Positions 18,716 through 64,000 of a stretch of DNA of 64,000 nucleotides are shown here, piece after piece. The notes under the pieces were generated by a model that saw only the letters and a list, made by a program, of their open reading frames with translations, searched no databases and was not told the origin of the DNA. The stretch is from the NCBI GenBank assembly GCA_043228905.1, contig JBHGNT010000010.1:14942001-15006000 (forward strand), in the 5' to 3' direction. Source of the stretch: Azolla caroliniana (taxonomy: Eukaryota > Plantae > Polypodiophyta). How positions within the stretch are numbered: the stretch's first letter is position 1; the number at the start of each line of letters is the position of its first letter. The translations under genes were made by a program, and so were the position numbers.

Positions 18716-19335
18716 AGAGGGCTATCAAGGCGTGGGGCCACGGTAGTCCAGACACCCCGGAGAAACCCCACACGTGTACCATAGGAAGGAAACCCTGTAC
18801 TATAGACTAGAAATTTTGGTTCTCCGACAACGGAGGCTGTACAATAACCGGCATTAGCGGCCAGGAGAAGAACCGGGTGTAGGAACATCTCAGGGCGTGC
18901 GGAGTCCTAGGCCCTGACAAAGTGATAGGCAGTGCCGTGGAGGCGGTCTCTTTCGACGATACCTTGGGAGATCTGAGGAACGTGCTCCAAGAAGGCCTCA
19001 GTGAAGATCGGACAATTCCGGTTAGTTCGGAACGGATGTACGAAGTCATCGCCGACTTCGGGAAAGGGGTCGAGTTGGATCGGACGGCCCGTGTGGATAC
19101 AAGGTACAAGAATGTGGACCGGAAGGTGAGGCCAGTTGTGGCACCCTTGCCGGAGGGCAGCGAGTGTTGTCCGGTCGACGATTACTATTTTGCCGACATA
19201 GTATAAGACGAACGTTCGTATTGAACGTTCTATCAAGAAGTTGTGGTTAGACGAATAGATACGAATTATCTGTAAACTTATCGGTGATAACAGACACCGA
19301 GATCATGACTTATGTAATATAGTTTAGGCAGAAAT

Positions 19336-19929
19336 TGTTGGGAGACAGGTCCCTCCGGATGGGAAGGGAGAAGAATAGTACTGATGAACAAACTCGATCG
19401 AGGCCGAAACCGGATGAGGAGTACCCGGCTACGGAGAGCCGGATGGTGCAGACCCGGTGAGAAGTGCTCACCGGATGAAGAGACATATTCGTAAATATGT
19501 TTCTGAGAGTCCATCGTGGCTATATTTGTAAATAGCTGAAAAGTCATATTAGTATAAATATGACTTAGGGCAAACTTTTAGTTGATGATTGTTATTCTTG
19601 TTGGTGCAAGAAGAGAGATAGCGCGTAATAGTGTACAGAGAGATAGAGAGAGAGGAAGAGGTCGCTGCCTCTGTTGTAACCGCCGCCGTTGGCGAAGATC
19701 GTGAGCACGAGGTCGTTGCCTCAGCGAACTCACTATTGTACATTCTAGCATAGTGATAGTTTGCAGCATGTGGGCTGCCGTGGTTTTTCCCTAGTTTGGG
19801 TTTTCCACGAAAACATCCTGTGTACTCTTCTCTTCTTTGTGTCGTGCGTTTCATTTCCCGTTTTCTGTGTATGATTCTAAGCTTGGTTGTGGCCGAGAGT
19901 GGCGTATAAGGAGCATGCGGTTCCCGTCA
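19336..19929 (+). mobile_element. Solo LTR (Copia family related to elements I/J) inside the 3' LTR of Gypsy C
   Basis: TGTTGGGAGA...CCCGTCA with a perfect GAAAT TSD; absent from the sister LTR at 29436-29882; homologous to 32666-33326 and to the I/J LTRs. Confidence 0.93.
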
Positions 19930-20286
19930 GAAATAAATAGATGACAAGAAGCAATCCGTACACAGAGATTTCCTAACCAAACTTTATATTACTAAATACA
20001 ACGATAGGTTTTTACAATGCCTTCGGTTCCTTTTATAGGTAACCCAAAGGTCTTTTCTCATCAAGAAATCCTATTGCCTATAATTATCAAGAATTACAAA
20101 ACTTCGTAACTAACTATGTCCTATTCGGCTCTCTGCTGAGTCATCGATCCGAACTGTTGATCCGACTCTGACTCTGACTTCGAACATCCTTCCGACTCTG
20201 GCGTATCTACACTGGTCCAGGTAACACTTGGCATGCCCGTGGGCTAGGACGTTGTCTGGCGAACCCACGGAACCCTTCTACTCCTG

Positions 20287-23198
20287 CTACTCGGAGGAAG
20301 GATCTTCCTCCATCTCCAAATCATCGTCGGCGTCGTCCTGCAAAATGTCGAATAAGGAGGGTTCTGCTTCCTGTGTTGCCACGCCTACGTCGTCTTCATC
20401 TTTATCTTTGGTGTCCTCCCCATTGTTTACCTGGCCGGCTTCTTCAGTCGATGGTCTTGGCTCTGCTGACTCCGGTGCTCTGAGTTCAGGTGTTTTGGTT
20501 ACTCTTTCGGCTTCGATATTGTCTAACTTGACCGATGTCTCGACATCATGCTTGTCGAATTCCTACATGACTCGGTTAATTTCTTCTTTAAAATAAGCCG
20601 CCCTTTGGTGTCCTCCCCATTGTTTACCTGGCCGGCTTCTTCAGTCGATGGTCTTGGCTCTGCTGACTCCGGTGCTCTGAGTTCAGGTGTTTTGGTTACT
20701 CTTTCGGCTTCGATATTGTCTAACTTGACCGATGTCTCGACATCATGCTTGTCGAATTCCTACATGACTCGGTTAATTTCTTCTTTAAAATAAGCCGCCA
20801 TGTCGTATAGGTCCTTAGCAATATCTTCCTGAACTATTGCCATTGCTTCCTCTAACATCTTGAGGAAGCCTTTGCCCTGAACTTTCCTATTTTCTCTGTC
20901 GGCTCTTAATAGTTGAAGCTCGGCAGCTTGTGCCAACCATGTTTGCCAACCCTTCTCCAGCGATTCATTGACCAATTTTAGGGTGTTAATTTGGTGACGT
21001 CTAATGATCGCTTGAACCCTGTCCTGAGTCATTCTAGCCTCAAATTGTGCTGTTGCCAATGTTTTCCGTAAATCAATGATTACCGCATTGGTATGTCCTT
21101 CTGCATGCATCAATTTAGCTTGTGCCACTAAGAGGTCAAGTCGCGGTTTCTCGGAGATTGTTTGAATTTCTGCACATCTGTTTTCCAGCTTCGCTTTCTC
21201 TTCATTCCAGTTGTTCTGCTGCTGAATTATTTTTCCGATGATTTCATCTATCAATTTGTCTTTACCAGCCAACTGTGTTGTAAAACAAGTCTCTTGGCTC
21301 TTAAAATACTCTTCCAGTTCCTCGACTTGTTGCCTTGTAGTCTCTTGCTGTTGGGCTAACTGTTTGTGTAAATCTTGTATTACATTATCCTTTCCCCCCA
21401 AACATCTGTCGGCCATCGTTTTTGCCGACTGTAATCGAGCCTCCATTTCCCTGAACTTGTCCTCAGTCTTTTTCGCCTTAATTTCTGCCTCTCTTCGTGC
21501 TTGTTCAGCTTGGTTCAACCTCTTTTGTAATTCCGAATCCGTCTCCAAAGGTTGTCTTTGTGACTCTGGTTGGAATATCTGTTCTCTCGCTTTTTCTAGA
21601 GCCACTTGTTCTTCTTGCAGTTTATTTTTCAACTGCTGATTTTCTGCCTGCATCTGTTTATACTATGCATTAAGCACATCTACAGTAGATGTAGCCTATT
21701 TGTATAATTCAGCCATATCCCTGGCCGCTCTGCTAGCCTTTTCATATTCTCGGTGTACTTCCACTAGTGCCTCATGTAATGGTGGTATTTGAATGGCTTC
21801 ACCTCTATTTTTAGCATGTCATTGTCGACCAATTCTATCCACTTCCGCTTGCTCTTTTGGTTCGATAGCTCCACATAATGACTTTTGGATCATTATTTGA
21901 TCTTTGTGCTCTTGCGCCATTCTTTCCGACACTTCTTGCAGTCTTTTAGCTAACCATTCTACCAGTTCATATGATGTTCCGAACTGCAGAATGGCAACTA
22001 GCTCATGTGCTGCTGCCGGGATGTCGGAAAAACCGAGTGCCTCTTGCACCGTTGTCGTTGATGCCTGCCCCTTTTGAACTTGTGACGTGTCATCTGGATT
22101 GACACGAGGTATTTGTGCGCTTTGGGTGGCTTGATAGTTAGTTCTTTTTTCCTTATGCGCAGGTTGTTCTTGTTCTGGTCTAGAGTATCTTTGGGGCTGT
22201 TGTTTCACCCTGCGTTGCTTCGGTGATTGCTGGTCACTGTCAACTCGTCTTGATTCCTTCAGCTGTGATTGTTGGTCGTCTGTCGTCCCTCGTTGTTGCA
22301 TCCTCTATGGTTGAGACTCCGGCGGTTGAGTCGACAATTGTTGGGTAGGTTCGGGTTGCGGTATCGACAGTTGAGACTGCGTCGGCTGTTGTTGTTCCGA
22401 TTCTTGTTGGTGCCTTGGTTCCGGTTGGTCAAATTCGGTCTGAGTGGTATTGTCCTACGTTGATTCTTCTTACCTCCACTCTTCTTGTTGGACTTGTCAT
22501 CGGGTTCGGGATGACTGTACCTGAGGCGGCCGACGCACCTCTGATCGGTTTTCCGACTCTGAAGTCGGAAATAATACCGATAACCAATGAGCAAAAATTG
22601 GCTTCATTGGTTTTCCTTTCTGAACTCCATTCAGTTGCTCTCTTAGAGCATCTGCCAACAATAGACCCCAATCGAAAGCTTCACCCTTATAAGCGGCAAT
22701 AATAAATCCGGCCCTCTTTTTGGGCATACAGTAGAATCTGGGACTAACAAACCCTACTTCCAATAAAATTTTTGCAACTTCATGAAAAAACATGTCCCTA
22801 CCTCCTTGTGTCTAATACGCTTTGGTAGAGGGCAAATATTCACCAAAATAGGACCGCAAAACATCCTTTGTGACCTTGTTGATAGCGTCGAACCCACCTC
22901 TTGGCATCTCCAACAAGACCCTTACCTTCTTATTCGTGATCGTCGAGACATCAATTTCTGCCAACAGAGCTTCCACGTTCGGGTGCGGCTCTGTTTCTGC
23001 GACTTTCAAAAATCCCTGTAACTTATTGCGAACAAGCCAGCGATGCAAGTTGTCAGATACGACAATCGGCATGTTGTCGTCGTCGATTAACAGATCGTCA
23101 CTTAGTGATGGCTATGAGAAACGTTGTGGGCTATGGCGACAAAAATCAAAAAACCTCTGACCTCGAATGTGTTTCTGCTTCTGTGGTGAAACAATCAT
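20287..23198 (-). pseudogene. Extra ORF of Gypsy C (~900 codons): globular N-terminus with DWG motif, Q/P/E-rich linker, long coiled coil, acidic tail
   Basis: ORF-track pieces 22812-23072, 22497-22793, 21819-22301 and 20760-21653 all lie in one frame starting at ATG 23198. It is broken by single premature stops and a 197-bp duplication. Confidence 0.8.
20406..20799. repeat. 197-bp tandem duplication
   Basis: 20406-20602 matches 20603-20799, with no differences seen by eye. Confidence 0.95.
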
Positions 23199-23342
23199 TA
23201 CAGAAATAGGATTTAAGAGATTAATTTTTTGCATGCTGCCTAGGGAATAAAAGTACTATTAATGTTGTAATGACTAGGTGTACTAGTGGAGTGACGGCTA
23301 GAAATAGTAATAATGACTAATAGAAATATGCCTCCACTACTT

Positions 23343-26300
23343 TTACTTATAGCCTTTTGAAATTACTCCAAGAATCTCTTCGTGAGAGTTAGTTATGATT
23401 TGGCAAGAAAATATTCTATAGTTAGTTTTTTGTTTACTTTTCTTCCGATTCATCCTTGAATGGATTTTTCGGCATGTGTCCACGATATGGTTTAAGCTGG
23501 AAACCATTGACCCATTTCGGTAAAATCTCACTGATAGGGTTCCCAATTGATACGTACCATTTTTACTGTTCATGATCCAAACTGGTCCCGTCCATCTAAA
23601 CCGAAGTTTTCCTGGCATCGCCCCCATCTTGGTCTAGAAAACCAGTACTGGTTTCCCGATTCTGAATTCAGATTCGGTTTTCCGTCGGTGTTGATTTACA
23701 AATGCCTTGGTTTGCCTTTGCTTGTGCTCTAAAGCTGTCATAGCTTGTAGTCGGTCTTCTTCTAACAACAATAAAGATTCTTTCCGAATTTGCTCCGACT
23801 GTAGTTCATTTAATTTTTCGGTTGCTTGTATTCGGAGTGTCGGGATCTGGAATTCGATTGGCATCACTGCCTCCAATCCAAAAGCCATTCGGAAAGGTGT
23901 TGATTTAATAGATGTTTTGTACGACGTGCGATATGCCCATAAAACACTATGCAACTTTTGATCCTAGTCCGTACGATTCTTATTTACTATCTTCTTGAGT
24001 ATTGTCTGGAGGGTTTTGTTTGTCGACTCCGCCAATCCATTCGCTTGTGGATAGTAAGGAGTGCTTTTCTTATGAACCACTGCATAGTAGGTAGACAATT
24101 CATGAACAAGTTTGTTAATGAAATGCGTACCTTGATCGCTCACTAATTCTATTGGGCAACTGAATCGACACCATATACTTTCATACAAAATTTTTGCTGT
24201 TGAAGCTACCGTATTATCCCTAAGAGCTTTAGCTTCTACCCACTTCGTACAGTAGTTAGTAGTCCGTACGATTCTCATTTACTATCTTCTTGAGTATTGT
24301 CTGGAGGGTTTTGTTTGTCGACTCCGCCAATCCATTCGCTTGTGGATAGTAAGGAGTGCTTTTCTTATGAACCACTGCATAGTAGGTAGACAATTCATGA
24401 ACAAGTTTGTTAATGAAATGCGTACCTTGATCGCTCACTAATTCTATTGGGCAACTGAATCAACACCATATACTTTCATACAAAATTTTTGCTGTTGAAG
24501 CTACCGTATTATCCCTAAGAGCTTTAGCTTCTACCCACTTCGTACAGTAGTTAGTAGTCCGTACGATTCTCATTTACTATCTTCTTGAGTATTGTCTGGA
24601 GGGTTTTGTTTGTCGACTCCGCCAATCCATTCGCTTGTGGATAGTAAGGAGTGCTTTTCTTATGAACCACTGCATAGTAGGTAGACAATTCATGAACAAG
24701 TTTGTTAATGAAATGCGTACCTTGATCACTCACTAATTCTATTGGGCAACTGAATCGACACCATATACTTTCATACAAATTTTTTGTTGTTGAAGCTACC
24801 GTATTATCCCTAAGAGCTTTAGCTTCTACCCACTTCGTACAGTAGTTAGTAGCCACTATAATATATCTATTGCCTGTTCTTACTGCTGCCGGTTTGAAAG
24901 GGCCTACAAAATCCAACCCCCATTTCTGGAAAGGTTCAAGAGGTAACACCGCTTGAAATGGCCTTCGGTCCCTTTCTGTCGGTTGTCCCATACGTTGGCA
25001 TAAATCACATTTTCGACAATATTCGACTGCATCCTTCATCACTGTCGGCCACCATAACCCACTGTTCCATATTTTTCTTGCTGTGGTTTCCCCAGCATAG
25101 TGTCCTCCTGCAATTCCACAGTGTGATTCCCGAAGAATGACCGATTTTTCGAATTGTCGTATTGTTCTTCTCCAAATACCATCTGCTCCTTTATGATACA
25201 GAGTGTCATTCAAAAGACAAAAATTACGACCCCATACCGCCAACCTTTTCCTTTCGTCTGCCGATAGATGTTCGGGTGGTAACCCTGTTGTAAGAAAGAT
25301 TGTCATTTCTGAGATCCAACCATCCTCACTTTCTTCATTTACACCCTGTGCATTTACTGCTTCCTCTCGAAAAAGTTGACCATCCGGAAAATCATCCTTG
25401 ACACCCGTGCCTTCTTCTCTTGACTCTAGTTGACTGAGATAATCGGCCACTGCATGCTGTACTCTTGGCCGATGTAAAATGTCGAATTTGAATTCTTGGA
25501 GTAGAAGAGTCCATCTTGCTAACTTGCCAGTTAACTCTTGTTTCGAGACCAAATAAAGAAGAGCCGAATGATCAACATGAAATGTAAACTTTTTCCCCAA
25601 AAGATAGTGTCAAAACTTATTGACACTATAGATCATTCCTAAAGCTTCCCTCTCAGTGGTAGAGTAATTTCTTTCTGCTGTCGAGAGTTTCCGACTAGCA
25701 TAGTAAACTGGCCTGTACCAATTCAGTTCGGTTAACTGCATTAATACACTCCCAATTGCGATGTCCGATGCGTCGACAAAAACATGGAATGGCTTATTCC
25801 AATCAGGTGGTTGAACAACTGGAACTTTGGACAACATTTTCTTCAGACAATCATATGCATCCTGTTCCACAGTTGTCCACTGAAAAGGAACGTTGTGTAC
25901 TGTTGTATGTAAGGGAATGGCGATATCCGCAAGATATCTTATCATTCGGCTAAGCCATCTTATTTGCCCCAAAAACCGACTGAGAACTTTAGCATTTGTG
26001 GGTGCCGGTGCTTCCAGTATGGCTTTAACCTTGTCAGAGTCCACTGCAATTCCTTCCTGACTGACAATATGGCCTAATAATGTGCCACTAGTGACCCCGA
26101 ATGCACATTTAGCTAGATTTAAACTAAGCCGTCCTTCCCGACATTTCTCCAAACATAGTCGTAAATGCTCAAAATGTTTGGTTTTCTGACTATAAATAGC
26201 AAAATCATCCAAAAATACTTCCATAAAGGCAGGAATGTAATTCCCAAATATTTCCTTTATCACTCTTTGAAATGTCGTCGGAGCGGTCTTCAAGCCAAAC

Positions 26301-29200
26301 ATCATTACTACTGCTACAAACACTCCCCATTCTGTAACAAAAGCTGTCTTTTCTTGATCTTCCGGATTCATCCGAATCTGATTATAACCACTAAAATCAT
26401 CTAGGAAACTATATACTTCATGGCTAGCTACCGCATCCAATATACCATCCGTAAATGGTAATGGAAACGCATCCGTAACGGTAGCCGCATTTAGTTTCCG
26501 GTAGTCGACACATACCCGAATTTTGCCATTCTTTTTCGGAACTACGACGATTGGACTTAACCATGTCGATTTTTTCACCGGACGAATAAACCCTACTTTC
26601 AAAAGTTTATCTATTTCTTCTTTAACTTTAATAGCATAATTAGGATTTAATGGGTACCTGCGTTGTTGAACTGGCTTTGCATCCTTATGCAAGTTGATTT
26701 GATGTTAACAAAAAGTTGGATCTAGTCCCTTCATATCTTCAAAAGACTAGGCAAAGACATCCTTATATTGCTTTAATAATGCTGTTAACCTTTGTTTGTC
26801 CGCTTCTATCATATCCTTAGCAATGAGTACTGTTTTCAACTCATTGTCCCCATCTTCTTTTGCCAAATTTATTTCCTGCAATGCTGAAGGTTGAACTCGT
26901 TGGGACACCTTCATCTCTCTATCGGTAGCTTCTTGTTGGAGTCGTATCTCCTTCATTGCTTGCTCATCTATTGGCAATTCCTCCTGGGAATCCACATACG
27001 GCATCAAGGCTTGTAAAATATCTACTTCGAACAAAGGAATGATTTTCGGATTATCATCAAAATACTAATTTTCTTCGACCTCGTCTAATCCTTCCATCAT
27101 ATTGACAGACTCAACATACACAGGCAAACACTGTTTGCTTGTCGCAACCTTGTTCTGTGTTGAAACCCGGATTTTCGTTTTGCCTTTTCTGAATGTTAAT
27201 TGATTCTGATTCCAATTCTGCTTGATGTTAGCAGTCTTTAACCACGGTCGCCCTAATAACAAAGGATATGCACCAGGAGCTTCCAAATGAAGAATGACTG
27301 CTGATATCAAAAAACTATGACCACCCAATACCACCTCTAATTGGTGGAGTAAACCAATTGGTCGTACCCTAGTGGTATCCGCCATTCTTAGCCAAAATGG
27401 GCAAGCTTCCCATTTAGTAATTCCCAACCTATCACAGGTGGTTTTATTAATGACATTCACTCCTGAGCCCCCATCGATAATCGTATTTTCAATTTCCTGA
27501 CCCTGAATTATTACTTTAATTGATGGATTTTGCTCATCCATGATTGAAGGGCTGGTGCTCGGCTGACTATAATGTACCGATACTTGTTCTGACCCCTTTT
27601 GGGCAATCAATGTTGCCACTTTTTCTGTAAATCTAGGGTCCAACTTCAGTAATCCGGTCAGTGGTAATGATACTTGGCAATCTGCCAAGAGCTTCCAAGT
27701 TTCATCTTGTTCTGGTACAACAATAACTCTTGGTAATTCGGTAGCTTGGTTAATTTCATTGTCTTGGAGCATCCGGTTTACATTATTTTTGTTTGCTTCC
27801 TCTACCCATTCCTTGGCTGCTTTCCGGATTGCTTCTTGAATCTCCAACTCCGATTGTTTACTTTTGCTTCTAGTGGTTACTTGCTGTATTTCCGGTATAA
27901 CCATATTAACCGCTGGTCCTTTTCCTTTAGCAGGACATTGATTAGCATAATGACCAGTTTGACGGCAAATATAACAAGTAGGAACAAATGTTCCACTTCC
28001 CTCTCCTTGCTCAAACTGACTAGTCCCATCATTTTGCATAAATTGTTGACCATCATCCGAAGATTCCTGAAACTGTCGTGAGGCTTTCGGTTTGTAGAAT
28101 CTTTTATTTTTATACTGGTTCTGCTTAAACCGTCCTCCATCCGGCGATTGCTGAAATTATCGTGAGGCTTTCGGTTTGTAGAATTTTTTATATTTATACA
28201 AGTTCTACTGATTCATATTCGGTGTTACCGAGAATTCTTGATTTTGTTGAAAATTATTTTGTTGAAAATCTTGATTGTGCTGAAAATTATTTTGTTGAAA
28301 AGTTGGATTCTACTGGAATTTATTTTGTTGAAAGGCTTGATTTGTTTGAAAATTATTTTGTTGACTTTGTGGAAAACTCTTTTGTTGGTATCCATTACTG
28401 AACGAATTGTGGTTATTGTGGTACCCGTTTTCCGGAAAAATTTGTCTTACCGGAGCCGTCGTCTTATTGAGCAAATTATACTCACATTGCTCGACCGAAT
28501 GAAGTTTAGAATGACATATTGTGCAATGTGTACACAGACTACATTCGATCGTCGAATGTCCGGTATTTAAACAAGTAGTACACTGAACTGCTTGTCAAAA
28601 TTGCAACTCCTCCATCATTTGTAGTGTACGATTTAACACTGACATATCCATACTTCGTACATTTATCGGCTGTTGGCCCATAACGATTGCCTTATCAATC
28701 ACTTGCTCGATATTCTGATTCCCGAAATCGAACACCTTCAGTGTTGTTCGTAATGGTTCACGAATTGCTTCAAGGAATACATCCTTCAATTCATCGTCCA
28801 GAATAGGCCTAGAAATTTGCAGTTGCAAATTCTGAAAACAAATCACAAATTGCGACACCGTTTCCTGCTACTCCTGATACAACGCATAAAATTGCGCTAT
28901 CAAATCTTTTTGAGGTATTTGACGATGAAATAATTGCAGAAATTTACTGTTAACTTGTTCGAATGTTTCGAACCCATGGAGACCATTTTGCGCAAACCAA
29001 TTAGCGGAATAACCCTCCAATGACAAAACGAACTCATCAATCTTTGACTTATCTTCGGTTTCCGCCGACAATCTCTGAGCTCCATGATTAATCTCCCATG
29101 TTGTCAGAAAATCCCTCACATGCACTTCTGCATCAGCTCCCTCACGAAACTTCGAGTACGGATAAGGCATATTGTCCTCACTCCATATATCGTAAAATGA
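23343..29200 (-). pseudogene. Gypsy C gag-pol polyprotein (decayed)
   Basis: Zinc knuckles (CTTCLNTGHSTIEC, CTICHSKLHSVEQC, CYICRQTGHYANQC); PR IIDGGSGVN; RT YSFLDDFSGYNQI...FLDDF; RH FVDASDIAIG...ERNYSTTEREAL; INT HHCC, WGLDFVGP, SDQGTHF, YYPQANGLAE, WTGP. Confidence 0.92.
23965..24849. repeat. 295-bp unit in three tandem copies within the integrase core of Gypsy C
   Basis: Units start at 23965, 24260 and 24555; near-identical; TAG(T) microhomology at the junctions. Confidence 0.95.
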
Positions 29201-29435
29201 TACCTCTTTCGGCTGATTTTCGTCGGAAGACTGGCTATCAGTTAAATCAGGAAGTACCAACCAACTTCTAATTGTTTCCGGCTGTAATCCCTCAATCGAT
29301 TTTGTCTCTAGCGTCTTTGTAACAGAACGCGTACGAGGATGTTTACAACTGACTGGTGTATTCGGACCATACGACATCCATTCGTCTTGTTCTCTGCTAT
29401 GTGCAGATGTAACCGGGCGTGCCAAAATTATACTG

Positions 29436-29882
29436 TATTGTTCAGTCGACGATTACTATTTTGCCGACATAGTATAAGACGAACGTTCGTATCAAACGTT
29501 CTATCAAGAAGTTGTGGTTAGACGAATAGATACGAATTATCTGTAAACTTATCGGTGATAACAGACACCGAGATCGTGACTTATGTAATATAGTTTAGAC
29601 AGAAATAAATAGATGACAAGAAGCAATCCGTACACAGAGATTTCTTAACCAAACTTTATATTACGAAATACAACGATAGATTTTTATAATGCCTCTGGTT
29701 CCTTTTATAGGTAACCCGAAGGTCTTTTCTCATCAAGAAATCCTATTGCCTATAATTATCAAGAACTAACTATGTCCTATTCGGCTCTCTGCTGAGTCAT
29801 CGATCTGAACTGTCGATTCGACTCCGACTCCGACTCCCAACATCTTTCCGACTCCGATGTATCTATACTTGTCCGGGTAACA
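29436..29882 (-). repeat. 5' LTR of Gypsy C
   Basis: Matches 19165-19335 plus 19935-20226. Confidence 0.92.
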
Positions 29883-29887
29883 ACGAG

Positions 29888-32800
29888 TTATGGATGAAAG
29901 GGGGCGCGTCGGACCCAAGTTTATGAGATCTGGCTGGCATAGGACACCGGTTCACCGACATAACGCTACGAGAGCTCAAGGTCAGTAGGGATGGCTTTCT
30001 ACTGCCGGTGGAGGAGGAACGGTTTCAGAGAATGCTCGGGAGGCACGGGAAGGCCTTCACATTCTCATCGGAAGTGATCGGGTGCGTAGACCCGACGGTC
30101 GTTGAGCCGACGATTATCTTCATGGTACCGCATGTGCCGTGGAATCTCAAACCAATTCTAGTACCTAGAGCTCACATCTTGAAGCTAATGGAGTTACTGA
30201 AGCAGAAGGTGGAGATGGGCATCCTCGAACCGTTGAGTGCCCCATACTTGAATTGGTGGTTTACCGTGCCAAAGAAGAACGACACGTTGCACTTTATTCA
30301 AGACCTGCAACCGGTCAACAAGGTGACCATTCGGAACGCAGGAATCGGACCGACCATTCTCGAGTTCGTGGAGGCCTTCGCCGGAAGGTCAATTTACTCG
30401 GTTGGGGATCTGTACTCGGGGTACGACCAATTACAACTAGCCGTGGAGAGCAGGGATATTACGACAATGCGGACTCCTCTCGGCCTAGTGCGGATGTGTA
30501 CCCTTCCGCAAGGGGGGACAAACTCGGTAGCGCACATGGTGAATGTGATGAATAAAGTGCTAAGGGACTACATCCCGGAAATCACCATGCCGTTTTTGGA
30601 TGACATTCCGATCAAGGGATGTCTGGTGGAGGATAAGAACGAAACGGTTGGACCGGACGAGTGTCGGAAATTTGTCTCGGACCACATCGGAGACTGCGAG
30701 AAGGTGCTACAAAAGCTGGAAGGCGCATGACTCACCTTCTCCGGGGAGAAATCGAATTTCAGACAGTCGGAAATCATGGTCGTCAGACACCTGTGCGGGC
30801 CTTATGGCCGGAAATCGTCTCCGGCTAAGGTGGAAGCTATCTCCGTGATGAAGGAAGACTGTAGGTCGGTTACAGAAGTCCGGAGGTTCTTGGGAGCTTG
30901 CGCGTTCTACTACATTTGGATCCCACATTATGCCCATATCGCGGAGCCGCTCTATAGGTTGTTGAAGAAAGGGCGCAAGTTGGAGTTGGGTGGGGAGCAT
31001 GTGGAGTCAGTCTGGAAAATGAAAGAAGTGATTGCCGTGGCACCGACACTCCGGAAAGCGGTCTATGGTAAACATGTTCCAATTTATGTAACCGTAGACA
31101 CGAGTCCGATCGGAATCGGATGGGTGATCAACAAGAAGGATGAGAACGGCACGAGGTTCCCCATCCGGTTCGGTGCGAAAGTACTTAGCGAGCGACCACG
31201 AGGATACACCCAGGTTAAACGCGAACTTTGGGGTATCGTTTCGGCGGTCAAGGCCGACAAAGACTACCTGATAGGGACGAAGGTAATAATAGAGATGGAC
31301 TGGCTACTGATTCTCGGTATGGTTTCCGAATGCGCGACGCCAGACCTAACAATGCTCAGGTGGATAGCGTACATTAAGTCCCTGAATCTGTAGATTCGGC
31401 ACATCTCTGGGAAGGACAACGCCATGGCCAACATGCTTTCGAGCGCGAGGTTTGATGACGAGGGCGGCATGGTTTTAGAGGACGAGGAAGTCGGCGTGGA
31501 CTTCTTCGAGACGGCTTACGTGACAACGAGAAAGGGGGGCAACGAGGTCGATGAGAGCAATTACGACGGGGAGTGGCTCTAGATCGGTGGGTTCCTGAAA
31601 ACGATGACGTCGGACAACGTGGACAAAGGAAGAGGCTAACCGGATCCGGAAGAAAGAGTACCGATTCTTCCTACGGGACAGAAGCATATGGAAACACCTG
31701 AAGAAGCGAGATGGCGTCCCACTTCGGGTAGTGGTGAGGAAGGAGGAGCAAGAAGCATTGTTGATGGCGTACCACGAGAGTCCTTGGGTTGGACATCAGG
31801 GGACATGGGCCACGTTCGAGAAGCTGAAGGAGAAGTACTGATGGCCATGAGTAAAGATATACCGGGACGTGCATCGGTTTGTAACGACTTGCGAAAGCTG
31901 TTAGATGCATTCACTTCAAGTGGATCGTGGATCTGGTAACGATGCCGATGGGGGTAGGGCAGATGAGATACCTGGTGCTAGCACGGGAGGACCTGATGAA
32001 CCAGGTGGAGGGCCGAGCATTACCGAACAAGACGACTGCGGCCATGTGCCGGTTCTTGATCGAAGAGGTGGTATGTCAGTACGGGTGCATAGGGAAGATC
32101 GTAGCGGACCGTGGAGAACTGGATGCACAAGAGGCAGAAGAGCTATTTGATCGGTTAGGGGTTAAACTCTCGTTCACCACGACGTACAATCCAGAGGCAA
32201 ACGGGAAGGTGGAACGCGGACATGGGCCAATCGTAAAGGCGTTCGTACAAGCATGTGAAGGCCAAGTCGGGAATTGGCCGTGACTCCTACCTTACATGTT
32301 GTGGGTGCACCGAACTACGCATAGTTCGGTAACCGGGTTCATGACAGCGGAGTTGATCTACGGGCAGAAGCCGATCATGACGATGGAGCGAACGATCTCC
32401 TCATGGGCCGCGTTGGACTGGAGAGACGAGATGAGCCGGGAGGAGCTGTTAGCGGTGCGAATCCGACAGCTCGAGCGATGACCGGAGGACGTGGAACGAG
32501 CAATGGCGAAGCTGCGTGCGGCAAGGACAAAGAACAAGGGGTGATTCGACTGGACTCACCGACTACAACCGAAGAAAATCGAGGAAGGAGACTGGGTTCT
32601 GGTCTACGACAGCTGCCTCGACAACTAGCACAAGGCGATGCGGAAATTTGCGAAGAGGTGGTTCGTGACGTGAACTCAAGGCTCCTTTTGCACAACGCTC
32701 GGCCACAACCGAGCTTAGGATCATACACAGAAAACGGGAAACAAATGCACGCGACACAAAGGAGAGAAAAGGTACACAAAATGTTTACATGGAAAACCCA

Positions 32801-33525
32801 AAGAGGGAAAAACCACAGCAACCCACAGACTGCAAACTATCACTATGTTGGAATGTACAAAACAGTGAGTTCACGGAGGCAACGACCTCGTGCTCACGAT
32901 CTTCGCCACAGGCGGCGGTTACAACAGAGGCAACGACCTCTTTCTCTCTCTCTCTCTCTGTACACTGTTACGTGCTCTCTCTTCTTCTTGCACCAACAAG
33001 AAAATAACAACAACAGTAACTAAAAGTTTGCCCTAAGTCATATTTATACTAATATGACTTTTCGGATATTTACAAATATAGCCTCGATGGACTCTCAAAA
33101 ACATATTTACGAATATGTCTCTTCATCCGGTTCTCACCGGGTCTGCACCATCCGGTTCTCCGTAGCCGGGTACTCCTCATCCGGTCTTCACCGGGTCTGT
33201 ATCATCCGGCTCTCCGTAGCCGGCTACTCCTCATCCGGTTTCGGCCGAGGCCTATCGGCCTCGGCCGAGCTTGTTCATCGGCACTGTTCTTCTCCCTTCC
33301 CATCCGGAGGGACCTGTCTCCCAACAGTTCGGGCCTTATGGGGTGATAAGCACCAACGACAACGGCACCTACCATCTCGCGGAGCTCGACAGAACGAGAA
33401 TAGCTGTGCCGGTGGCTGGGAAGAGGATCAAGGCGTTCAAGAAGGGGCACGAGGACGAACCGGATCCAGAGGACATGGATAGCGACGACAACCGGTTAGG
33501 AGCGGATGGTGTCAGGAGATCGTAA
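29888..33525 (+). pseudogene. Gypsy A pol (RT-RNase H-integrase), decayed
   Basis: DLYSGYDQ, LPQGGTNSVA, PFLDD, VTVDTSPIGIG, DLVTMP, ADRGELD, YNPEANGKVERGH, WFGPY. Confidence 0.92.
32666..33326 (-). mobile_element. Solo LTR (same Copia-type family as 19336-19929) in the integrase of Gypsy A
   Basis: TGACG...CCAACA on +, perfect GTTCG TSD; removal restores RWFGPY. Confidence 0.93.
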
Positions 33526-53450: not shown

Positions 53451-54086
53451 TGTTGAACACAGTGCTCGGCCACAACCGAGGAATAGGATCAACTCACAGA
53501 AAACAGGAAATACAAAATGCACGAAGACAATAGAGAGAAGAGTACATAGGATGTTTTACGTGGAAAACCCTAAATGGGAAAAACCACGGGAGTCCTCAGA
53601 CTCCAACTATCACTATAAACAGAGATGTACAATGGTGAAGCTACAAGGCAACAACCTTGAGCTCACTGTCTTCGCCACAGGCGGCGGTAATACACAGAGG
53701 CAACGACCTCTTCGTCTCTCTCTCACTCTCTCTCTCTCTCTCTCTCGGCTGCTCTCTTCACTCTTGCACACATAAGAGTGACAATACACAATAGGCAACA
53801 ACATACAGCCAGCAACACTAAACAGTTTGCCCTAAGTCATATTTATACACATATGACTTTCGGACTATTTACAAATATAGCCTCAAAGGGCTCTTGGAAA
53901 ACATATTCACAAATATGTCCCCGCATCCGGATCTCTCTCCGGGTACATTCGTCATCCGGCTCCGTAGCCGGGGTCTTCATCATCCGGCTCCAAGTACCGG
54001 GTACTCCTCATTCGGGTCTTCATTCCCGATTCCCGGACATCCGACCATCCCATCCGGAGGGACCGTAATCCCAACAAACTCCCCCT

Positions 54087-57000
54087 TCACTTCGGCATGG
54101 GATGTCTTTCCAGTCCGACCCTCTTCCGGCACGCTTCCAGCTTGTCGGGTGTGAGCACTTTGGTCAACATATCTGACCCGTTCTCTTCCGTGTGGATCTT
54201 CGTCAGCACGAACTCCTGGTCTTCTATCCTTTCCCGGATCCAGTGATATCTTCGCTGGATGTGCTTCGTCCGGGAGTGATAGGCCGCGTTCTTCGCAAGG
54301 TGGATGGCACTCTGACTGTCGCAGTAGAGTCGGTACTCCTCCTGCCGGATACCGAGCTCTCTAATGAAGTCCTTCATCCATATTATTTCCTTGCCGGCTT
54401 CAACAGCCGCCATGTACTCCGCCTCCGTGGTTGACAACGCAACCGTCTTCTGCAGCCTCGACTGCCACGAAACAGCTCCCCCTGCATACGTCATCACATA
54501 CCCTGATGTGGACTGGCTGGTATCTGCATCAGCCGACATATCCGAATCGGTAAAGCCGTCGAGTTCGGGCTTACCGGAGCCGAATCGGAGGCACACGTTT
54601 GCCGTGCCCTTCAGGTATCGGAGTATCCACTTGGCCGCGTTCCAGTGCTCTTTGCCGGGATTGCTCATGTACCGGCTCACCACTCCGACTGCATATCCTA
54701 TGTCCGGTCTTGTACACACCATTGCGTACATCAAGCTTCCGACGGCAGAGGAATATGGTACTTTCGTCATGTCCTCCTTCTCAGCCTTTGTCTTGGGGCT
54801 TTGCTTGCTGGACAACCTGCAGTTTGCCGGGAGGGTTGACCCGACCGGTCTTGCTTCCGACATGTTGAACCGGTGAAGCACCTTTGTCACGTACTTCTCC
54901 TGTGACAGCCACAACTGCTTCTTCTTCCGGTCCCGGATGATGTGCATCCCTAGTATTTGCCTCGCCGGACCCAGGTCCTTCATTGAGAAGGTTCGGTGAA
55001 GCGCTTTCTTCAGCATTCGTATCTTGACTTGGTCCCGTCCGACGATCAACATGTCGTCCACGTACAGGAGGAGTATTAGAAAGTCTCCTCCTTCGAACTT
55101 CTTCACAAACACGCAGTGATCGGACTGCGTTTTGTGGTACCCTTCGTCGGTCATGAAAGAGTCGAACTTCCGGTACCATTGCCGGGGAGCCTGCTTCAGT
55201 CCGTAAAGGCTCTTCTTCAACTGGCATACCAGGTGCTCCTTCCCTTTCTTCTCGAATCCTTCCGGTTGCTGCATGTAGATCTCTTCTTCGAGGTCACCGT
55301 GAAGGAATGCCGTCTTCACGTCCATCTGTTCTACCTCGAGGTCCATGCTTGCCGCTATGCTCAGCACCGTCCGGATGGAGGTCATCTTCACTACCGGGGC
55401 AAATATCTCGTCGAAGTCGATGCCCTTCTTCTGCTGAAACCCCTTTACCACGATCCTGGCTTTGTATCTCGGGGGGTTTCCGGCATCTCCCGGTTTCAGC
55501 TTGAACACCCACTTGTTTCGAAGTGCCCGTTTTCCTTTCGGCAACTCCACAAGTTCATATGTGTGGTTCTCATGCAGGGAATCCATCTCGTCCTGCATGG
55601 CACTCAACCACCTGCGGCTCTGGATGTCATGCTTTGCTTCTTCAAAGCTCTCCGGCTCCCCCTCGTCGGTTAGCAGCACGTGCTCTGGTTCCGGAAATCT
55701 CCGGGGGGGCCTTCTCTCTCTTAGAGGATATCTCCGTTCCGGAGCTTCGGTAACCGGCTCCTCCGTTTCCTCTTCATCCGAATCCATTTCGGGATCGGGG
55801 CCGGTTCCGGTATCAGTTTCGTCTTCCTCGGCCGGTTCTGTTTCTTCACCGTCTTCGGCCGGATCCTCGAGTGCTAACCGGTCCCTTGCCGGTCGGGACT
55901 GCTCCTCGTAGAGTTGATCCTCACCGGTCGACTTGGAGCTCTTCATTTTCTTCTCCGACTCCCAGTCGGCGAGTGTCTTGTTCTCCATGAAGATGATATC
56001 ACAACTCCGGAATATCTTCTTGTCGACCGGGTCCCATACTCGGTAGCCGAACTCGTCATCGCCGTAACCGAGGAATATGCATGGCCGGGTCTTTGGATCT
56101 AGCTTTCCTCTCCGGTCCTTAGCCACATGCACATATGCGAGACACCTGAACACCTTCAGATGCCGGTAGGATACTTCCCTGCCGGTCCACACTCTCTGCG
56201 GCGTGTCTCCGTCCAAAGGTACTGAGGGTGATCTATTTATCACATATGTCGCCGTCGACATTGCCTCAGCCCAAAATCCCTTGGGTAATTTCGCATGTGC
56301 TAGCATACTCCGGACCCTCTCCATTATGGTCCGGTTCATCCTCTCGGCCAGCCCGTTCAGTTCCGGCGTCTTCGGCACAGTAAACTCGAGCCGGATTCCC
56401 ATCGAACGGCAATACTCCTCGAATTGCCCTCGGTATTCTCCTCCGTTATCCGCTCGTAGTGCTTTCAGCTTCTTGCCGGATTCTCTTTCCACTCTCGCAT
56501 GGAGTTCTTTGAAGACGGACAATACTTGGTCCTTTGTCTTCAACGGTGCCGTCCACAGCTTCCGGCTATTGTCATCTATGAATGTTACGAAGTACTGGGC
56601 TCCGCCATGTGACTTCGTTTCTACCCGACACACATCAGTGTGTACCAACTCCAATGGTACACTACGTCTCATCGGTGGTCTTGAGCGGAAGGAGGTCCGG
56701 TTTTGCTTACCGGCCAGACAGTCGGTACACTTCCCCAGGTGTACGTGCTTTACCGGTATCAGGTTGTCTTCGGCAAGCCTCTTCATCCCCTTCTCGCTCA
56801 TGTGGCACAGTCTCTTGTGCCACAGCTCACCGGTAGTGTCAGCTGCCACGTTCAGCTTCTCCGGACATAGCCGGGAATTCAGCAGGTACAGTGTGTTGAC
56901 CTTCCGGGCCCGAGCCACTATCAGGCTCCCTTTGCTGAACTTCATGACACCGTTCCGGATGCTACCCGTGTAGCCTTCATCGTCTAGCCTCCCGGCCGAA

Positions 57001-60000
57001 ATCAGGTTCAATCGAACCTCCGGAACGTGTCGAACATCCTTCAGCAGCATCTTGCATCCGGTTGATGTCATCAGCCACACGTCTCCTATGCCGGCAATCC
57101 GGCATGTACCTTCATTTCCCATCTGGACACAGCCGTGCTCACCGGCTGTGTAGGATGAGAAGTATTTCTTCTCCGGGGTCAGGTGGAACGACGCTCCGGA
57201 ATCGACCACCCAGGTCATCTCTTCACCGGCAAGGTTCAGCTCCCTCTCTTCGGTAATGAGCATTATCTCTTCTTCACTTGCCGCGAGTGCCGTCGTTCCT
57301 TTCCGGTCCTGCCCTCGCCGATCCGGACCTCTCCGGTCCGTGGCTCCCCGGTATGCACCGTTTCGCTCCGGTGACTTCTTCGAATCGGTACCGTCGGTTC
57401 CGTTGTCTTTCCGGAAATGCCGACAGTTCTTCTGGAAGTGCCCCGGCTTCCCACAGTAGAAGCATGTAGGTCTTCCCCTCGACTGCGACCGTGTCCCCGA
57501 CTTCTCCCGTCTTTGCGGACTCCGGTTCCGTTGTCTTCCCCGTTCCGATTCGGTAAGCAGCGCCTTCGAGTCGGAGGCCGGTTCTTTATCTCTCCGACGC
57601 GCTTCTTCATTTAGAATACTTGTCTTTACCGTTAGTAAAGACAAGTTCTCTTCCTTACAGGAGGTGCTGAGAGTAACTACCAAGTTCTCCCAGCTCTCCG
57701 GAAGGGTACACTGTTGGGATTACGGTCCCTTCGGATGGGATGGTCGGATGTCGGAGATGAATGATTACAAGCCCGGTTGCGGTTTCGGAACCGGATGATG
57801 AAGATCCCGGTTACGGAGCCGGATGACGAATGTACCCGGAGAGAGATCCGGATGCGGGGACATATTTGTGAATATGTTTGCCAAGGGCCCTTGAGGCTAT
57901 AGTTGTAAACAGTTTTAATGTTGCTACTCTTTTTTTCTGTTTTTCCACTCAAGAGGAGTGAAGAGAGAGCAGCCGTGAGAGAGATAGAGCGTGAGAGAGG
58001 AAGAGGTTGACGCCTCTGTGTAATTCCGCCGCCTGTGGCGAGGACAGCGAGCTCAAGGTCGTCGCCTTGCAGCTCGCCATTGTATATTTCTCTGTGCATA
58101 GTTTTGGTTCGGAGTCTTGTACTCCCGTGGTTTTTCCCGTACAGGGTTTTCCACGTTAAATCGTGTGTCCACTCTATTTTTTCGCATTTCCCATTTTCTG
58201 CAACAACGATTCGTGTGTTTCCTTGGTTGTGGCCGAGAGGTGAAGTTTGGAAAGCGACGATTATTTCCATCAATTTGGTATCAGAGCGAGCTGCTGCAGA
58301 AAACGGAAGGCGGCGGCAGCGGGCAGCCGGGGATGATGGTGCTGAATGCGCAGAATTACGCCGACTGGAAGATCAAGATGGAGGATCTTCTGATTGTTCG
58401 GGACCTGTACGAACCGATTGACAGGTCGGAAATACCGAAGGGGGTACTTGAGTCGGAATGGAGGCTTCTGAACCGGAAAGCCGTTGCAACCATTCGGCAA
58501 TACGTCGACGTGAGCGTTCTACAACATGTGGCGAACGACACCAACGCATATGAGATGTGGCGGAAGCTGTCGGGCCTCTACGAGAGGAAGAATGCGTTGA
58601 ACCGGACCTCCCTGATGAGGAAGATAGTGAACCTCAAGTACCGGGACGGCGAGAGTATGGTGGAACACGTAAGCACGTTCATGGGATTCGTGAACCAGCT
58701 TGCGGCGATCAAGTTCCCGTTGGAGGATGCAATGCAAGCCATCATCCTGATGTGTACATTGCCGGAAAGCTGGGAGAACCTGGTGGTGACTCTCAGCACC
58801 TCCTGCACCGAAGATAACTTGTCCCTACAAATGGTAAAGACAAGTATTTTGAACGAAGAAGCGCGTCAGAGAGATAAAGAACCGGCCTCCGATCCGAAGA
58901 TGTTGTTTACCGAATCGGATCGGGGAAGACAACGGAACCGGAGTCCGCAAAGACGGGAGAAGTCGGGGACACGGTCGCAGTCAAGAGGAAGGCCCACATG
59001 CTTCCACTGTGGGAAGCCGGGGCACTTCCGAAAGAATTGTCGGCATTACCGAAAAGACAACGGAGCCGACGACACCGATTCGAAGAAGTCTTCGGAACGG
59101 AACGGGGCTTACCGGGGAGCCACGGACCGAAATGGTTCGGATCGGCGAGGGCAGGACCGGAAAGGAACGACGGCACTCGCGGCAAGTGAAGAGGAGATCA
59201 TGCTCATCACCGAAGAAGGTGAACTAAACATTGCCGGCGATGAGACTACCTGGGTGGTCGATTCCGGAGCGTCGTTCCACCTGACCCCGGAAAGAAGATA
59301 CTTCTCATCCTACACAACCGGTGAGCATGGCTGTGTTCGGATGGGAAATGAAGGTACGTGCCGGATTGCCGGCGTAGGAGACGTGTGGTTGACAACCTCG
59401 ACCGGATGCAAAATGCTGCTGAAGGATGTCAGACACGTTCTGGAGGTTCGATTGAACCTGATTTCGGCCGGGAGGCTAGACGATGAAGGCTACACAGGTA
59501 GCATCCGGAACGGCGTAATGAAGTTCAGCAAGGGGAGCCTGATAGTGGCTCGGGCCCGAAAAGTCAACACACTGTACCTTATGAATGCCTGGTTGTGTCC
59601 GGAAGAGTTGAACGTGGCAGCCGACACTGCCGGTGAGCTGTGGCACAAGAGACTGTGCCACATGAGTGAGAAGGGGATGAAGAGGCTTGCAGAAGACAAC
59701 CTTATTCCAGTGAAGCATGTGCACCTGGAGAAGTGCACCGATTGCCTGGCCGGTAAGCAGAACCGAACCTCCTTCCACTCAAGGCCACCGACGAGACGTA
59801 GCGCACCATTGGAGTTGGTGCACACTGATGTGTGTCAGGTAGAAACGAAGTCACATGGCGGAGCCCAGTACTTCGTAACATTCATAGATGATCATAGCCG
59901 AAAACTGTGGACGGCACCGCTGAAGACAAAGGACCAAGTGTTGTGCGTCTTCAAAGAACTCCACGCGAGAGTGGAAAGGGAATCCGGCAAGAAGCTGAAA

Positions 60001-63000
60001 GCGATACGAGCGGATAACGGAGGGGAATACCGGGGGCAGTTCAAGGAGTACTGTCGCTTGAAGGGAATCCGGCTCGAGTTTACTGTGCCGAAGACGCCGG
60101 AACTGAACGGGCTGGCCGAGAGGATGAACCGGACCATAATGGAGAGGGTCCGGAGTATGCTGGCGCATGCGAAATTACCCAAGGGGTTTTGGGCTGAGGC
60201 AATGTCGACGGCGACATACGTGATAAACAGATCACCCTGAGTACCTTTGGACGGAGACACGCCGCAGAGAGTGTGGACCGGCAGGGAAGTATCCTACCGG
60301 CATCTGAAGGTGTTCAGGTGTCTCGCATATGTGCATGTGGCTAAGGACCGGAGAGGAAAGCTAGATCCAAAGACCCGGCCATGCATATTCCTCGGTTACG
60401 GCGATGACGAGTTCGGCTACCGAGTATGGGACCCGGTCGACAAGAAGATATTCCGGAGTCGTGATATCATCTTCATGGAGAACAAGACACTCGCCGACTG
60501 GGAGTCGGAGAAGAAAATGAAGAGCTCCAAGTCGACCGGTGAGGATCAACTCTACGAGGAGCAATCCCGACCGGCAAGGGACCGGTTAGCACTCGAGGAT
60601 CCGGCCGAAGACGGTGAAGAAACAGAACCGGTCGAGGAAGACGAAACTGATACCGGAACCGGCCCCGATCCCGAAATGGATTCGGATGAAGAGGAAACGG
60701 AGGAGCCGGTTACCGAAGCTCCGGAACGGAGATATCCTCTAAGAGAGAGAAGGGCCCCCCGGAGATTTCCGGAACCAGAGCACGTGCTGCTAACCGACGA
60801 GGGGGAGCCGGAGAGCTTTGAAGAAGCAAAGCATGACATCCAGAGCCGCAGGTGGTTGAGTGCCATGCAGGACGAGATGGATTCCCTGCATGAGAACCAC
60901 ACATATGAACTTGTGGAGTTGCCGAAAGGAAAACGGGCACTTCGAAACAAGTGGGTGTTCAAGCTGAAACCGGGAGATGCCGGAAACCCCCCGAGATACA
61001 AAGCCAGGATCGTGGTAAAGGGGTTTCAGCAGAAGAAGGGCATCGACTTCGACGAGATATTTGCCCCGGTAGTGAAGATGACCTCCATCCGGACGGTGCT
61101 GAGCATAGCGGCAAGCATGGACCTCGAGGTAGAACAGATGGACGTGAAGACGGCATTCCTTCACGGTGACCTCGAAGAAGAGATCTACATGCAGCAACCG
61201 GAAGGATTCGAGAAGAAAGGGAAGGAGCACCTGGTATGCCAGTTGAAGAAGAGCCTTTACGGACTGAAGCAGGCTCCCCGGCAATGGTATCGGAAGTTCG
61301 ACTCCTTCATGACCGACGAAGGGTACCTCAAAACGCAGTCCGACCACTGCGTGTTTGTGAAGAAGTTCGAAGGAGGAGACTTTCTAATACTCCTCCTGTA
61401 CGTGGACGACATGTTGATCGTCGGACGGGACCAGGTCAAGATACGGATGCTGAAGAAGGCTCTTCACCGAACCTTCTCAATGAAGGACTTGGGTCCGGCG
61501 AGACAAATACTAGGGATGCACATCATCCGGGACCGGAGCAAGAAGCAGTTGTGGCTGTCACAGGAGAAGTACGTGACAAAGGTGCTTAAACGGTTCAACA
61601 TGTCGGAAGCAAGACCGGTCGGATCGACCCTCCCGGCAAACTGCAAGCTGTCCAGCAAGCAAAGCCCCAAGACAAAGGCTGAGAAGGAGGACATGATGAA
61701 AGTGCCATATGCCTCTGCCGTCGGAAGCTTGATGTACGCAATGGTGTGTACAAGACCGGACATTGGATACGCAGTCGGAGTGGTGAGCCGGTACATGAGC
61801 AATCCCGGCAAAGAGCATTGGAACGCGGCCAAGTGGATACTCCGATACCTGAAGGGCACGGCAAACGTGTGCCTCCGATTCGGCTCCGGTAAGCCCTAAC
61901 TCGACGGCTTTACCGATTTGGATATGTCGGCTGATGCAGATACCAGCCGGTCCACATCAGGGTATGTGATGACGTATGCAGGGGGAGCTGTTTCATGGCA
62001 GTCGAGGCTGCAGAAGACGGTTGCGTTGTCAACCACGGAGGCGGAGTACATGGCGGCTGTTGAAGCCGGCAAGGAAATAATATGGATGAAGGGCTTCATT
62101 AGAGAGCTCGGTATCCAGCAGGAGGAGTACCGACTCTACTGCGACAGTCAGAGTGCCATCCACCTTGCGAAGAACGCGGCCTATCACTCCCGGACGAAGC
62201 ACATACAGCGAAGATATCACTGGATCCGGGAAAGGATAGAAGACAAGGAGTTCGTGTTGACGAAGGTCCACACGGACGAGAACGGGTCGGATATGCTGAC
62301 CAAGGTGCTCACACCCGACAAGCTGGAAGCATGCCGGAAGAGGATCGGATTGGAGAGACATCCCATGCCGAAGTGAAGGGGGAGTTTGTTGGGATTACGG
62401 TCCCTTCGGATGGGATGGTCGGATGTCGGAGATGAATGACGACAAGCCCGGTTGCGGTTTCGGAACCGGATGATGAAGATCCCGGTTACGGAGCCGGATG
62501 ACGAATGTACCCGGAGAGAGATCCGGATGCGGGGACATATTTGTGAATATGTTTGCCAAGGGCCCTTGAGGCTATAGTTGTAAATAGCCCAAAAGTCATA
62601 TGTGTATAAATATGACTTAGGGCAAACAGTTTTAATGTTGCTACTCTTTTTTTCTGTTTTTCCACTCAAGAGGAGTGAAGAGAGAGCAGCCGTGAGAGAG
62701 ATAGAGCGTGAGAGAGGAAGAGGTCGACGCCTCTGTGTAATTCCGCCGCCTGTGGCGAGGACAGCGAGCTCAAGGTCGTCGCCTTGCAGCTCGCCATTGT
62801 ATATTTCTCTGTGCATAGTTTTGGTTCGGAGTCTTGTACTCCCGTGGTTTTTCCCGTACAGGGTTTTCCACGTTAAATCGTGTGTCCACTCTATTTTTTC
62901 GCATTTCCCATTTTCTGCAACAACGATTCGTGTGTTTCCTTGGTTGTGGCCGAGAGGTGAAGTTTGGAAAGCGACGATTATTTCCATCATACACATCAGC

Positions 63001-63443: not shown

Positions 63444-64000
63444 TTTCTGTGTTAACCTCGCTCTGATACCAGTTTGCTGAACACAGTGCTCGGCCACAAC
63501 CGAGGAATAGGATCAACTCACAGAAAACAGGAAATACAAAATGCACGAAGACAATAGAGAGAAGAGTACACAGGATGTTTTACGTGGAAAACCCTAAATG
63601 GGAAAAACCACGGGAGTCCTCAGACTCCAACTATCACTATAAACAGAGATGTACAATGGTGAAGCTACAAGGCAACAACCTTGAGCTCACTATCTTCGCC
63701 ACAGGCGGCGGTAATACACAGAGGCAACGACCTCTTCGTCTCTCTCTCACTCTCTCTCTCTCTCTCTCGGCTGCTCTCTTCACTCTTGCACACATAAGAG
63801 TGACAATACACAATAGGCAACAACATACAGCCAGCAACACTAAACAGTTTTCCCTAAGTCATATTTATACACATATGACTTTCGGATTATTTACAAATAT
63901 AGCCTCAAAGGGCTCTTGGAAAACATATTCACAAATATGTCCCCGCATCCGGATCTCTCTCCGGGTACATTCGTCATCCGGCTCCGTAGCCGGGGTCTTC

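Follow-up and report, generated by a model that had tools for sequence, protein, structure and literature searches.

Element C occupies the minus strand from 29882 to 19164 of the window (the whole 64 000 nt stretch of DNA analysed here) and is a decayed Athila-like Ty3/gypsy LTR retrotransposon. Its 5′ LTR (29436–29882, minus strand) is 447 nt long and begins with TG, with a decayed final dinucleotide. It is followed on the same strand by an AT-rich spacer of 11 nt (29425–29435) and by a primer-binding site (PBS; 29412–29424) of 13 nt that complements the tRNA-Arg 3′ end. The 3′ LTR (19164–20226, minus strand) starts at 20226 with TGTTACC, as defined by its alignment with the 5′ LTR from the first base, and is split by a solo LTR of another family (19336–19929), which has its own 5 bp duplication and a close relative at 32666–33329. 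The two LTRs of element C are 94% identical: 27 of the 447 aligned positions differ and 24 of these differences are transitions. A 5 bp target-site duplication (TSD) at 19159–19163, to which no strand applies, is identical to 29883–29887 at four of five positions. Two LTRs, a TSD and a PBS after the 5′ LTR, the features by which a Ty3/gypsy element is recognized, are all found. Element C itself sits inside the pol region of another gypsy element.

The gag–protease–RT–RNase H–integrase region (23343–29411, minus strand) is interrupted by stops and frameshifts and contains a 295 nt triplication in the integrase. The order of the domains identified by Pfam is zf-CCHC, gag-asp_proteas, RVT_1, RT_RNaseH, Integrase_H2C2 and rve, and RNase H motifs are present in the translation. 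The named RT relatives are hypothetical proteins of Adiantum (up to 56%) and Riccia (46–48%), which suggests that the host is probably a land plant without seeds. An additional 3′ open reading frame, ORF2 (20278–23111, minus strand), is preserved in pieces and encodes a coiled-coil-like, acidic product that matches no Pfam family; the stop codon of the family is located at 20280–20278. Near-perfect tandem duplications within the coding regions (98–100% identical) comprise three copies of 295 nt in the integrase (23965–24852) and two copies of 197 nt in ORF2 (20406–20799), which could be recent duplications or assembly artefacts. Elsewhere in the window (53451–64000), two copia elements with internal regions that are 93% identical are nested or overlapping in opposite orientation.

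The internal region of element C ends in a compact module that resembles part of a tRNA. The first-pass annotation had placed a mimic of the 3′ half of a tRNA-Arg, ending in CCA, on the minus strand at 20270–20227, 2 nt before the 3′ LTR, and our analysis locates it exactly there, with TGTTACC following at 20226. In the sense orientation (minus strand throughout), the 5′ strand of an outer stem and a few T-loop-like bases (20260–20270; CC-GTGGG-TTCG) match the T-arm of tRNA-Arg. An inner hairpin (20244–20259) with 6 bp, a 3 nt loop and one bulged T substitutes for three tRNA bases. The segment formed by CCCAC, the acceptor 3′ strand and CCA (20229–20243) is one base shorter than in the tRNA and constitutes an inverted PBS on the plus strand; a 2 nt spacer (AG; 20227–20228) separates it from the LTR. 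The inner hairpin had originally been described as an enlarged T-loop, a description that we replace, as the enlarged part covaries as a hairpin in its own right. For the element C copy taken alone, the stem fold does not exceed the chance level (z = −1.55, with 17 of 200 shuffles folding just as well), and the structure is supported instead by the alignment. ARAGORN detected no complete tRNA cloverleaf and Rfam gave no tRNA match at E values up to 10 in 19000–30500, and a covariance model found no second copy of the module in the 64 kb window.

The internal region is thus bracketed by inverted PBS-like motifs at both inner LTR edges, as previously noted; the true PBS is separated from the 5′ LTR by 11 nt, and the inverted motif from the 3′ LTR by 2 nt. 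Exact matches to TGGCAYGCCCG occur in the window only at 20229–20239 (plus strand) and 29414–29424 (minus strand), with one match containing a single mismatch at 52231. Since 0.8 matches per window are expected by chance when up to one mismatch is allowed, the 11-mer alone is weak evidence, whereas its placement and conservation are not. The 10-of-11 match between the two motifs is present, and its single mismatch (20234) is decay specific to the element C copy; the PBS-matching base accounts for 78–97% of the summed contig depth at this position in all four DNA runs.

A local rearrangement of this one copy does not account for the module, as other copies also carry it instead of a polypurine tract (PPT) in contigs of DNA runs, at metagenome junctions and at unselected LTR starts. 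When contigs of four DNA runs from four studies were placed on 20100–20400, the summed depth was highest over the module and loose contig ends were found at both of its edges (20220 and 20269–20270); therefore, other families have the module in common with element C but differ in the flanking sequence. Among the 24 loose ends listed (of 204), none indicated a PPT at the junction. Metagenome contigs were scanned with a pattern that prescribed GTGGG, CCCAC and most of the tail, so that the loci were chosen by the module; this gave at least 121 matches in at least 120 loci. Among the 121 matches listed, 99 have an LTR-like start after the CCA, at a distance of 2 nt (91 matches), 4 nt (five) or 5 nt (three), all from one numbered series of 16 assemblies that may reflect a single host. 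The other 22 consist of 16 from unrelated collections, three inverted junctions and three junctions that are cut short or mutated. These 16 matches lie outside the main assembly series and were discounted as chance matches; an LTR start 2–5 nt after the CCA is missing from all of them (four were read in context).

The loci that share the module are diverse. The 97 junction matches with 100 nt of upstream sequence form 21 clusters at a score of 0.65 and 34 at 0.75 (shuffled maximum 0.43). Integrase pieces in module loci are 50–85% identical to element C, and ORF2 pieces are as low as 33%. Short non-coding LTR families (L011, L018, L019, L026, L036, L043, L048 and L079), with LTRs of about 330–420 nt and internal regions of about 2 kb, keep both the PBS and the module; a tandem arrangement of some of them could be genuine or could result from collapse in the assembly. 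With L018 as bait, the module was recovered from organisms C (34 contigs), D (288 contigs) and B (879 contigs), its flanks differing between contigs. Contigs under four organism labels carry it with varied flanks, the distance between these organisms not being evident from the labels. Organisms C and D share almost none of the sampled words of element C. A search of sequencing runs listed no RNA run with the sequence. In run X13, which is RNA only by guess, the module is present in ten contigs, a count that is no measure of expression. Viral contigs contained no match for the integrase, the module or the tRNA pattern. We also considered whether the module could be the real PBS of an element on the opposite strand and rejected this reading: among the 35 of 120 loci with element-protein matches, these matches lie upstream in sense orientation in 28, upstream in antisense in three, at inverted junctions in two and only downstream in two.

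The spacer between the 5′ LTR and the PBS is 11 nt in L002, L012 and L016 and 10 nt in L051. Overall, this AT-rich spacer measures 8–11 nt in coding families (L002, L012, L016, L051 and L061) and 2 nt in non-coding families, so that the integrase would need to trim overhangs of very different length. On the other strand of L090 (296–353), which comes from an unrelated metagenome, an LTR-end-like sequence and a 7 nt spacer lead into a long PBS of the Arg type and an open frame; this probably represents a normal 5′ junction belonging to a different plant element.

Priming of the plus strand from a PPT is regarded as a core step in the replication of retroviruses and LTR retrotransposons. The first-pass annotation reported such tracts in other elements of the window, which is borne out for the two that were checked (33604 and 62387), where a purine-rich run adjoins the LTR. 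Element C has no purine tract adjoining its 3′ LTR, as a canonical PPT-primed element would. A purine run slightly farther upstream (20273–20292), earlier suggested as a possible plus-strand origin, was rejected as a PPT; it consists of the last codons of ORF2 and is not conserved. ORF2 ends 9 nt before the module in element C and 2–9 nt before it in all five relatives translated, leaving no room for a PPT. Purines make up a fraction of 0.6 or less of the 15 nt preceding the LTR in all 99 junctions, and within 60 nt of the LTR the longest run of purines measures 3–8 nt. Because these loci had been chosen by the module, LTR starts that were not picked by the pattern were also examined. None of these 12 sites has a PPT: five have the module, one a split module and one an inverted PBS, two are 5′ LTR flanks and three are not junctions.

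With respect to known lineages, element C resembles PPT-primed Ty3/gypsy elements such as yeast Ty3 (PMC5371799) in the order of its domains, in having LTRs, a tRNA PBS and RNase H, and in a primer end defined immediately before the 3′ LTR, and differs from them in having a copy of the tRNA-Arg T-arm and acceptor strand with a covarying hairpin at the position of the purine tract. Its 5 bp TSD, 3′ extra ORF and length of about 10 kb recall the Athila clade of non-chromovirus OTA elements, as characterized by Neumann et al. (2019; PMC6317226). As in Athila, there is no chromodomain and no additional archaeal-type RNase H, as judged by Pfam on pol pieces of a decayed copy that could hide a weak domain. 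The Athila PBS is of the Asp (72%), Asn (12%) or Ala (4%) type according to the same source (PMC6317226), whereas that of element C is of the Arg type and is accompanied by no PPT; the dominant PBS tRNA of Athila is a dominant trait rather than an absolute criterion. Element C is therefore Athila-like by architecture and is not filed as Athila, since its PBS type differs and the assignment is one by architecture. Tat, Ogre and Retand elements are described as having an additional RNase H domain, and none was found in element C. The 4 bp TSD, Trp or Ala PBS and lack of an extra ORF given for Phygy and Selgy are all unmatched by element C.

The identity of the tRNA was assigned by comparison with tRNA genes. 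A pattern for the uninterrupted T-arm and acceptor strand, partly based on the tRNA end given in the first-pass annotation, matched 17 prokaryotic loci, and ARAGORN, from which the Arg identity is taken, classified all seven of the loci submitted to it as tRNA-Arg, one of them as TCT. Real tRNA-Arg genes thus have the same T-arm and acceptor strand, as the annotation had anticipated for the host, although these are bacterial stand-ins and not the host's own. Relative to the bacterial genes, the module corresponds to the 3′ third of the tRNA with three bases exchanged for a hairpin of 16–19 nt and one base missing. The three exchanged bases are positions 58–60 in the standard numbering, the site of m1A58.

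The two parts of the module evolve differently. Five of the six pairs of the inner hairpin change on both sides among 44 distinct sequences. Double-changed cells number 49, compared with 17.5 ± 3.1 in shuffled alignments, none of which reached this count in 500 trials, and with no more than 12 in slid controls, counts that may be inflated by relatedness; the number of covarying pairs alone is not above the shuffles (216 of 500). RNAalifold predicts 12 of the 13 pairs of the module. The outer stem is invariant, in part by construction of the search pattern, and across the four runs (80% likeness) neither of its strands nor the final 8 nt of the tail has a listed variant of 3% or more, a listing in which clipped contigs may conceal variants. 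The T-loop positions vary, with CG in 70 of the 99 junction matches. A variant in which the first T of TTCG is replaced by A (L018, 1307; L037, 962–1013) accounts for 17% of the depth in run X4, showing that the T-loop is not strictly fixed. Among the variants listed, a sense G-to-A change at 20236 makes up 41–97% of the depth in three of the four runs, the same change at the next G makes up 25% in X12 and that at the G after it 45% in X13; L002 contains such a G-to-A module variant beside an unchanged PBS. Conservation, proposed at the outset as a check, is thus found together with covariation of the inner hairpin, and we conclude that the module is a real, conserved and structured signal of many gypsy families and not an accident of the element C copy.

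The module almost certainly marks the start of the plus strand, as judged from its sequence context. The start of the LTR is set by the end of the plus-strand primer, as established for Ty3 and retroviruses (PMC5371799), and the CCA lies at a fixed short distance from it; the primer therefore most likely ends at the CCA. The spacing of 2 nt in 91 of the 99 junctions is the geometry expected of a primer end. From the position, conservation, tRNA-Arg identity and hairpin covariation of the module and the absence of a PPT, we infer, as the best guess, that the plus strand is primed 2 nt outside the LTR by host tRNA-Arg, which would anneal at a split site on the minus-strand DNA, a reading to which we assign a probability of roughly 0.5. 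In this gypsy lineage a conserved copy of the tRNA-Arg 3′ third, interrupted by a small hairpin, stands in place of the PPT, and according to this model the complement of the module on minus-strand DNA would serve as a second primer-binding site. After minus-strand synthesis and clearing by RNase H, the minus DNA would expose 11 nt complementary to the acceptor end and, beyond a 1 nt bulge, would offer the T-stem, the looped-out hairpin and then the T-arm 5′ strand, a bipartite site that would resemble the extended PBS of Ty1 and Ty3. The CCA of the tRNA would then prime, RNase H would remove the tRNA as at the other end and the integrase would trim an overhang of 2–5 nt. The sense hairpin in the genomic RNA may also hide part of the module from the PBS.

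Ty1 and Ty3 have split primer sites for which pairing with the acceptor end as well as the T-arm of the primer tRNA is predicted (PMC5371799, PMC3592414). Those sites, as described there, are located on the genomic RNA and serve minus-strand priming, whereas that of element C would be located on minus-strand DNA as a plus-strand origin. The combination of fixed tRNA-identical parts with a drifting, compensated inner hairpin fits an unchanging outside partner, and the G-to-A variants in the acceptor part would give G–T wobbles with the tRNA. In co-folding with a tRNA-Arg(TCT) gene (L129), a bacterial stand-in for that of the host, the acceptor and the T-arm both pair with the antisense strand in all 43 module types. 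The mean binding energy (RNA parameters) is −23.2 kcal mol−1, compared with −17.5 kcal mol−1 when the upstream part is scrambled, and binding is stronger in 39 of 43 types. Since pairing with a tRNA is automatic for a tRNA copy, this indicates feasibility and not use. We also count in favor of tRNA priming the retention of both PBS and module in the non-coding families and the inverted junctions (L008/L016, L061 and L037), which show that the two sites are exchangeable. Against it stands a conserved one-base gap: none of the 43 module types at normal junctions contains the additional base needed for a full tRNA match, which the pattern permitted, and the gap costs tRNA binding and lengthens the sense-strand stem instead. 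RNA primers on DNA are also usually extended poorly by reverse transcriptases, with the exception of the PPT. In its wider form, in which a successful plant gypsy lineage that has lost the PPT may use a single kind of host tRNA-Arg to prime both strands from a pair of outward-facing sites, such that the internal region can flip between the LTRs, the model falls a little short of an even chance.

Of the three mechanisms put forward in the first-pass annotation, priming by a host tRNA and priming in cis both stay viable. In the latter, which we regard as a serious but distinctly less probable possibility, RNA of the element itself would be cut after the CCA by the RNase H of the RT, with the hairpin protecting or positioning the fragment, and would prime the plus strand without any need for a second tRNA. 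The one-base gap speaks for such a primer, as it extends the 7 bp sense stem together with pyrimidines at positions −1 and −2. The sense strand folds better than the antisense strand in 32 of the 43 module types and the base directly 5′ of the module is a pyrimidine in 59 of 60 contexts, although the fold advantage and the 5′ pyrimidine fit the tRNA-priming model as well. RNase H, the motifs of which are present in the translation, already cuts the tRNA off at its CCA, and the RNase H of Ty3 RT cuts 10–12 bp downstream of a distortion (PMC5371799), a rule that is consistent with the end of the T-stem 10 nt before the CCA end. However, an RNA of the element always matches its own cDNA, which leaves unexplained why tRNA sequence is kept in the T-stem and tail across 21 clusters and four organism labels, and the wobble-type departures in the inner helix (12 G–U and 11 A–C cells) show no strand preference.

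The third mechanism, pairing of the module with the PBS in the genomic RNA for circularization or strand transfer while the plus strand is primed otherwise, is improbable and, on its own, disfavored by several observations. The module and the PBS are complementary over 10–11 nt, and long-range pairing of this kind is needed by Ty1, the CYC5 and CYC3 sequences of which likewise complement each other from the 5′ end and the 3′ end of the internal RNA (PMC3592414). CYC5 lies beside the PBS and is not the PBS itself, and that account, as far as it goes, gives no sign of CYC elements replacing a PPT. In element C, the predicted binding of −12.8 and −13.8 kcal mol−1 compares with −19.3 kcal mol−1 for the tRNA on the same PBS, the pairing would block the PBS, the amplified G-to-A variant with an unchanged PBS would result in an A–C mismatch, and the plus strand would be left without a primer and the fixed 2 nt spacing and the T-arm without an explanation.

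Least of all do we credit a relic, an old inverted tRNA copy from aberrant strand transfer that is either passive or serves as a Pol III B-box, the actual PPT being a cryptic one in the vicinity: the module does look like a tRNA copied past the usual stop and inverted junctions do arise, but the compensatory changes of the covariation analysis (49 cells, far above the shuffled mean) largely refute this reading, the module is kept between diverged flanks and in non-coding families, the purine runs near the LTR are only 3–8 nt at their longest, and the insert breaks the B-box-like word, as judged against the B-box consensus, in a module that is located outside the LTR. tRNA-derived promoters are known in the LTRs of Helenus TRIMs, which share with element C a tRNA-derived sequence within an LTR element (PMC10886601). 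In Helenus, as reported there, this sequence lies inside the LTR as a Pol III promoter, the PPT is kept and there is no complementarity to the element's own PBS; in contrast, the tRNA copy of element C lies outside the LTR, matches the PBS and stands in for the PPT.

Priming by host tRNA-Arg, the preferred reading, and priming in cis both depart from textbook PPT priming, and under either of them the second priming step can be rewired, with a high-copy lineage using a tRNA-shaped signal in place of the PPT. A literature search, which covered mainly titles and the openings of abstracts and few subscription papers, found no description of a tRNA-like replacement of the PPT, and a tRNA-derived route of plus-strand priming would be new for LTR elements. 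The module offers a 45 nt substrate for testing primer choice by RT and RNase H. Annotation tools that require a PPT would overlook or down-rank elements of this kind.

The symmetric ends are also a possible route to the inverted and chimeric copies seen here. In L008 (145–198), L016 (264–317) and L061 (382–430), the LTR end, spacer and PBS are joined to the reverse complement of the hairpin and 3′ region of another family; L008 and L016 are probably one locus in two assemblies. In L037 (about 2670–2715), an LTR start is joined to an inverted PBS and 5′ region. These are the two types of junction expected should the internal region flip between the two motifs; they come from short-read assemblies and are compatible with both tRNA priming and a cis primer. 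About 480 nt downstream of the module in L027, the final 8 nt of the module and the LTR start of another family come directly after a C-like LTR end, as if one element had inserted into the module of another.
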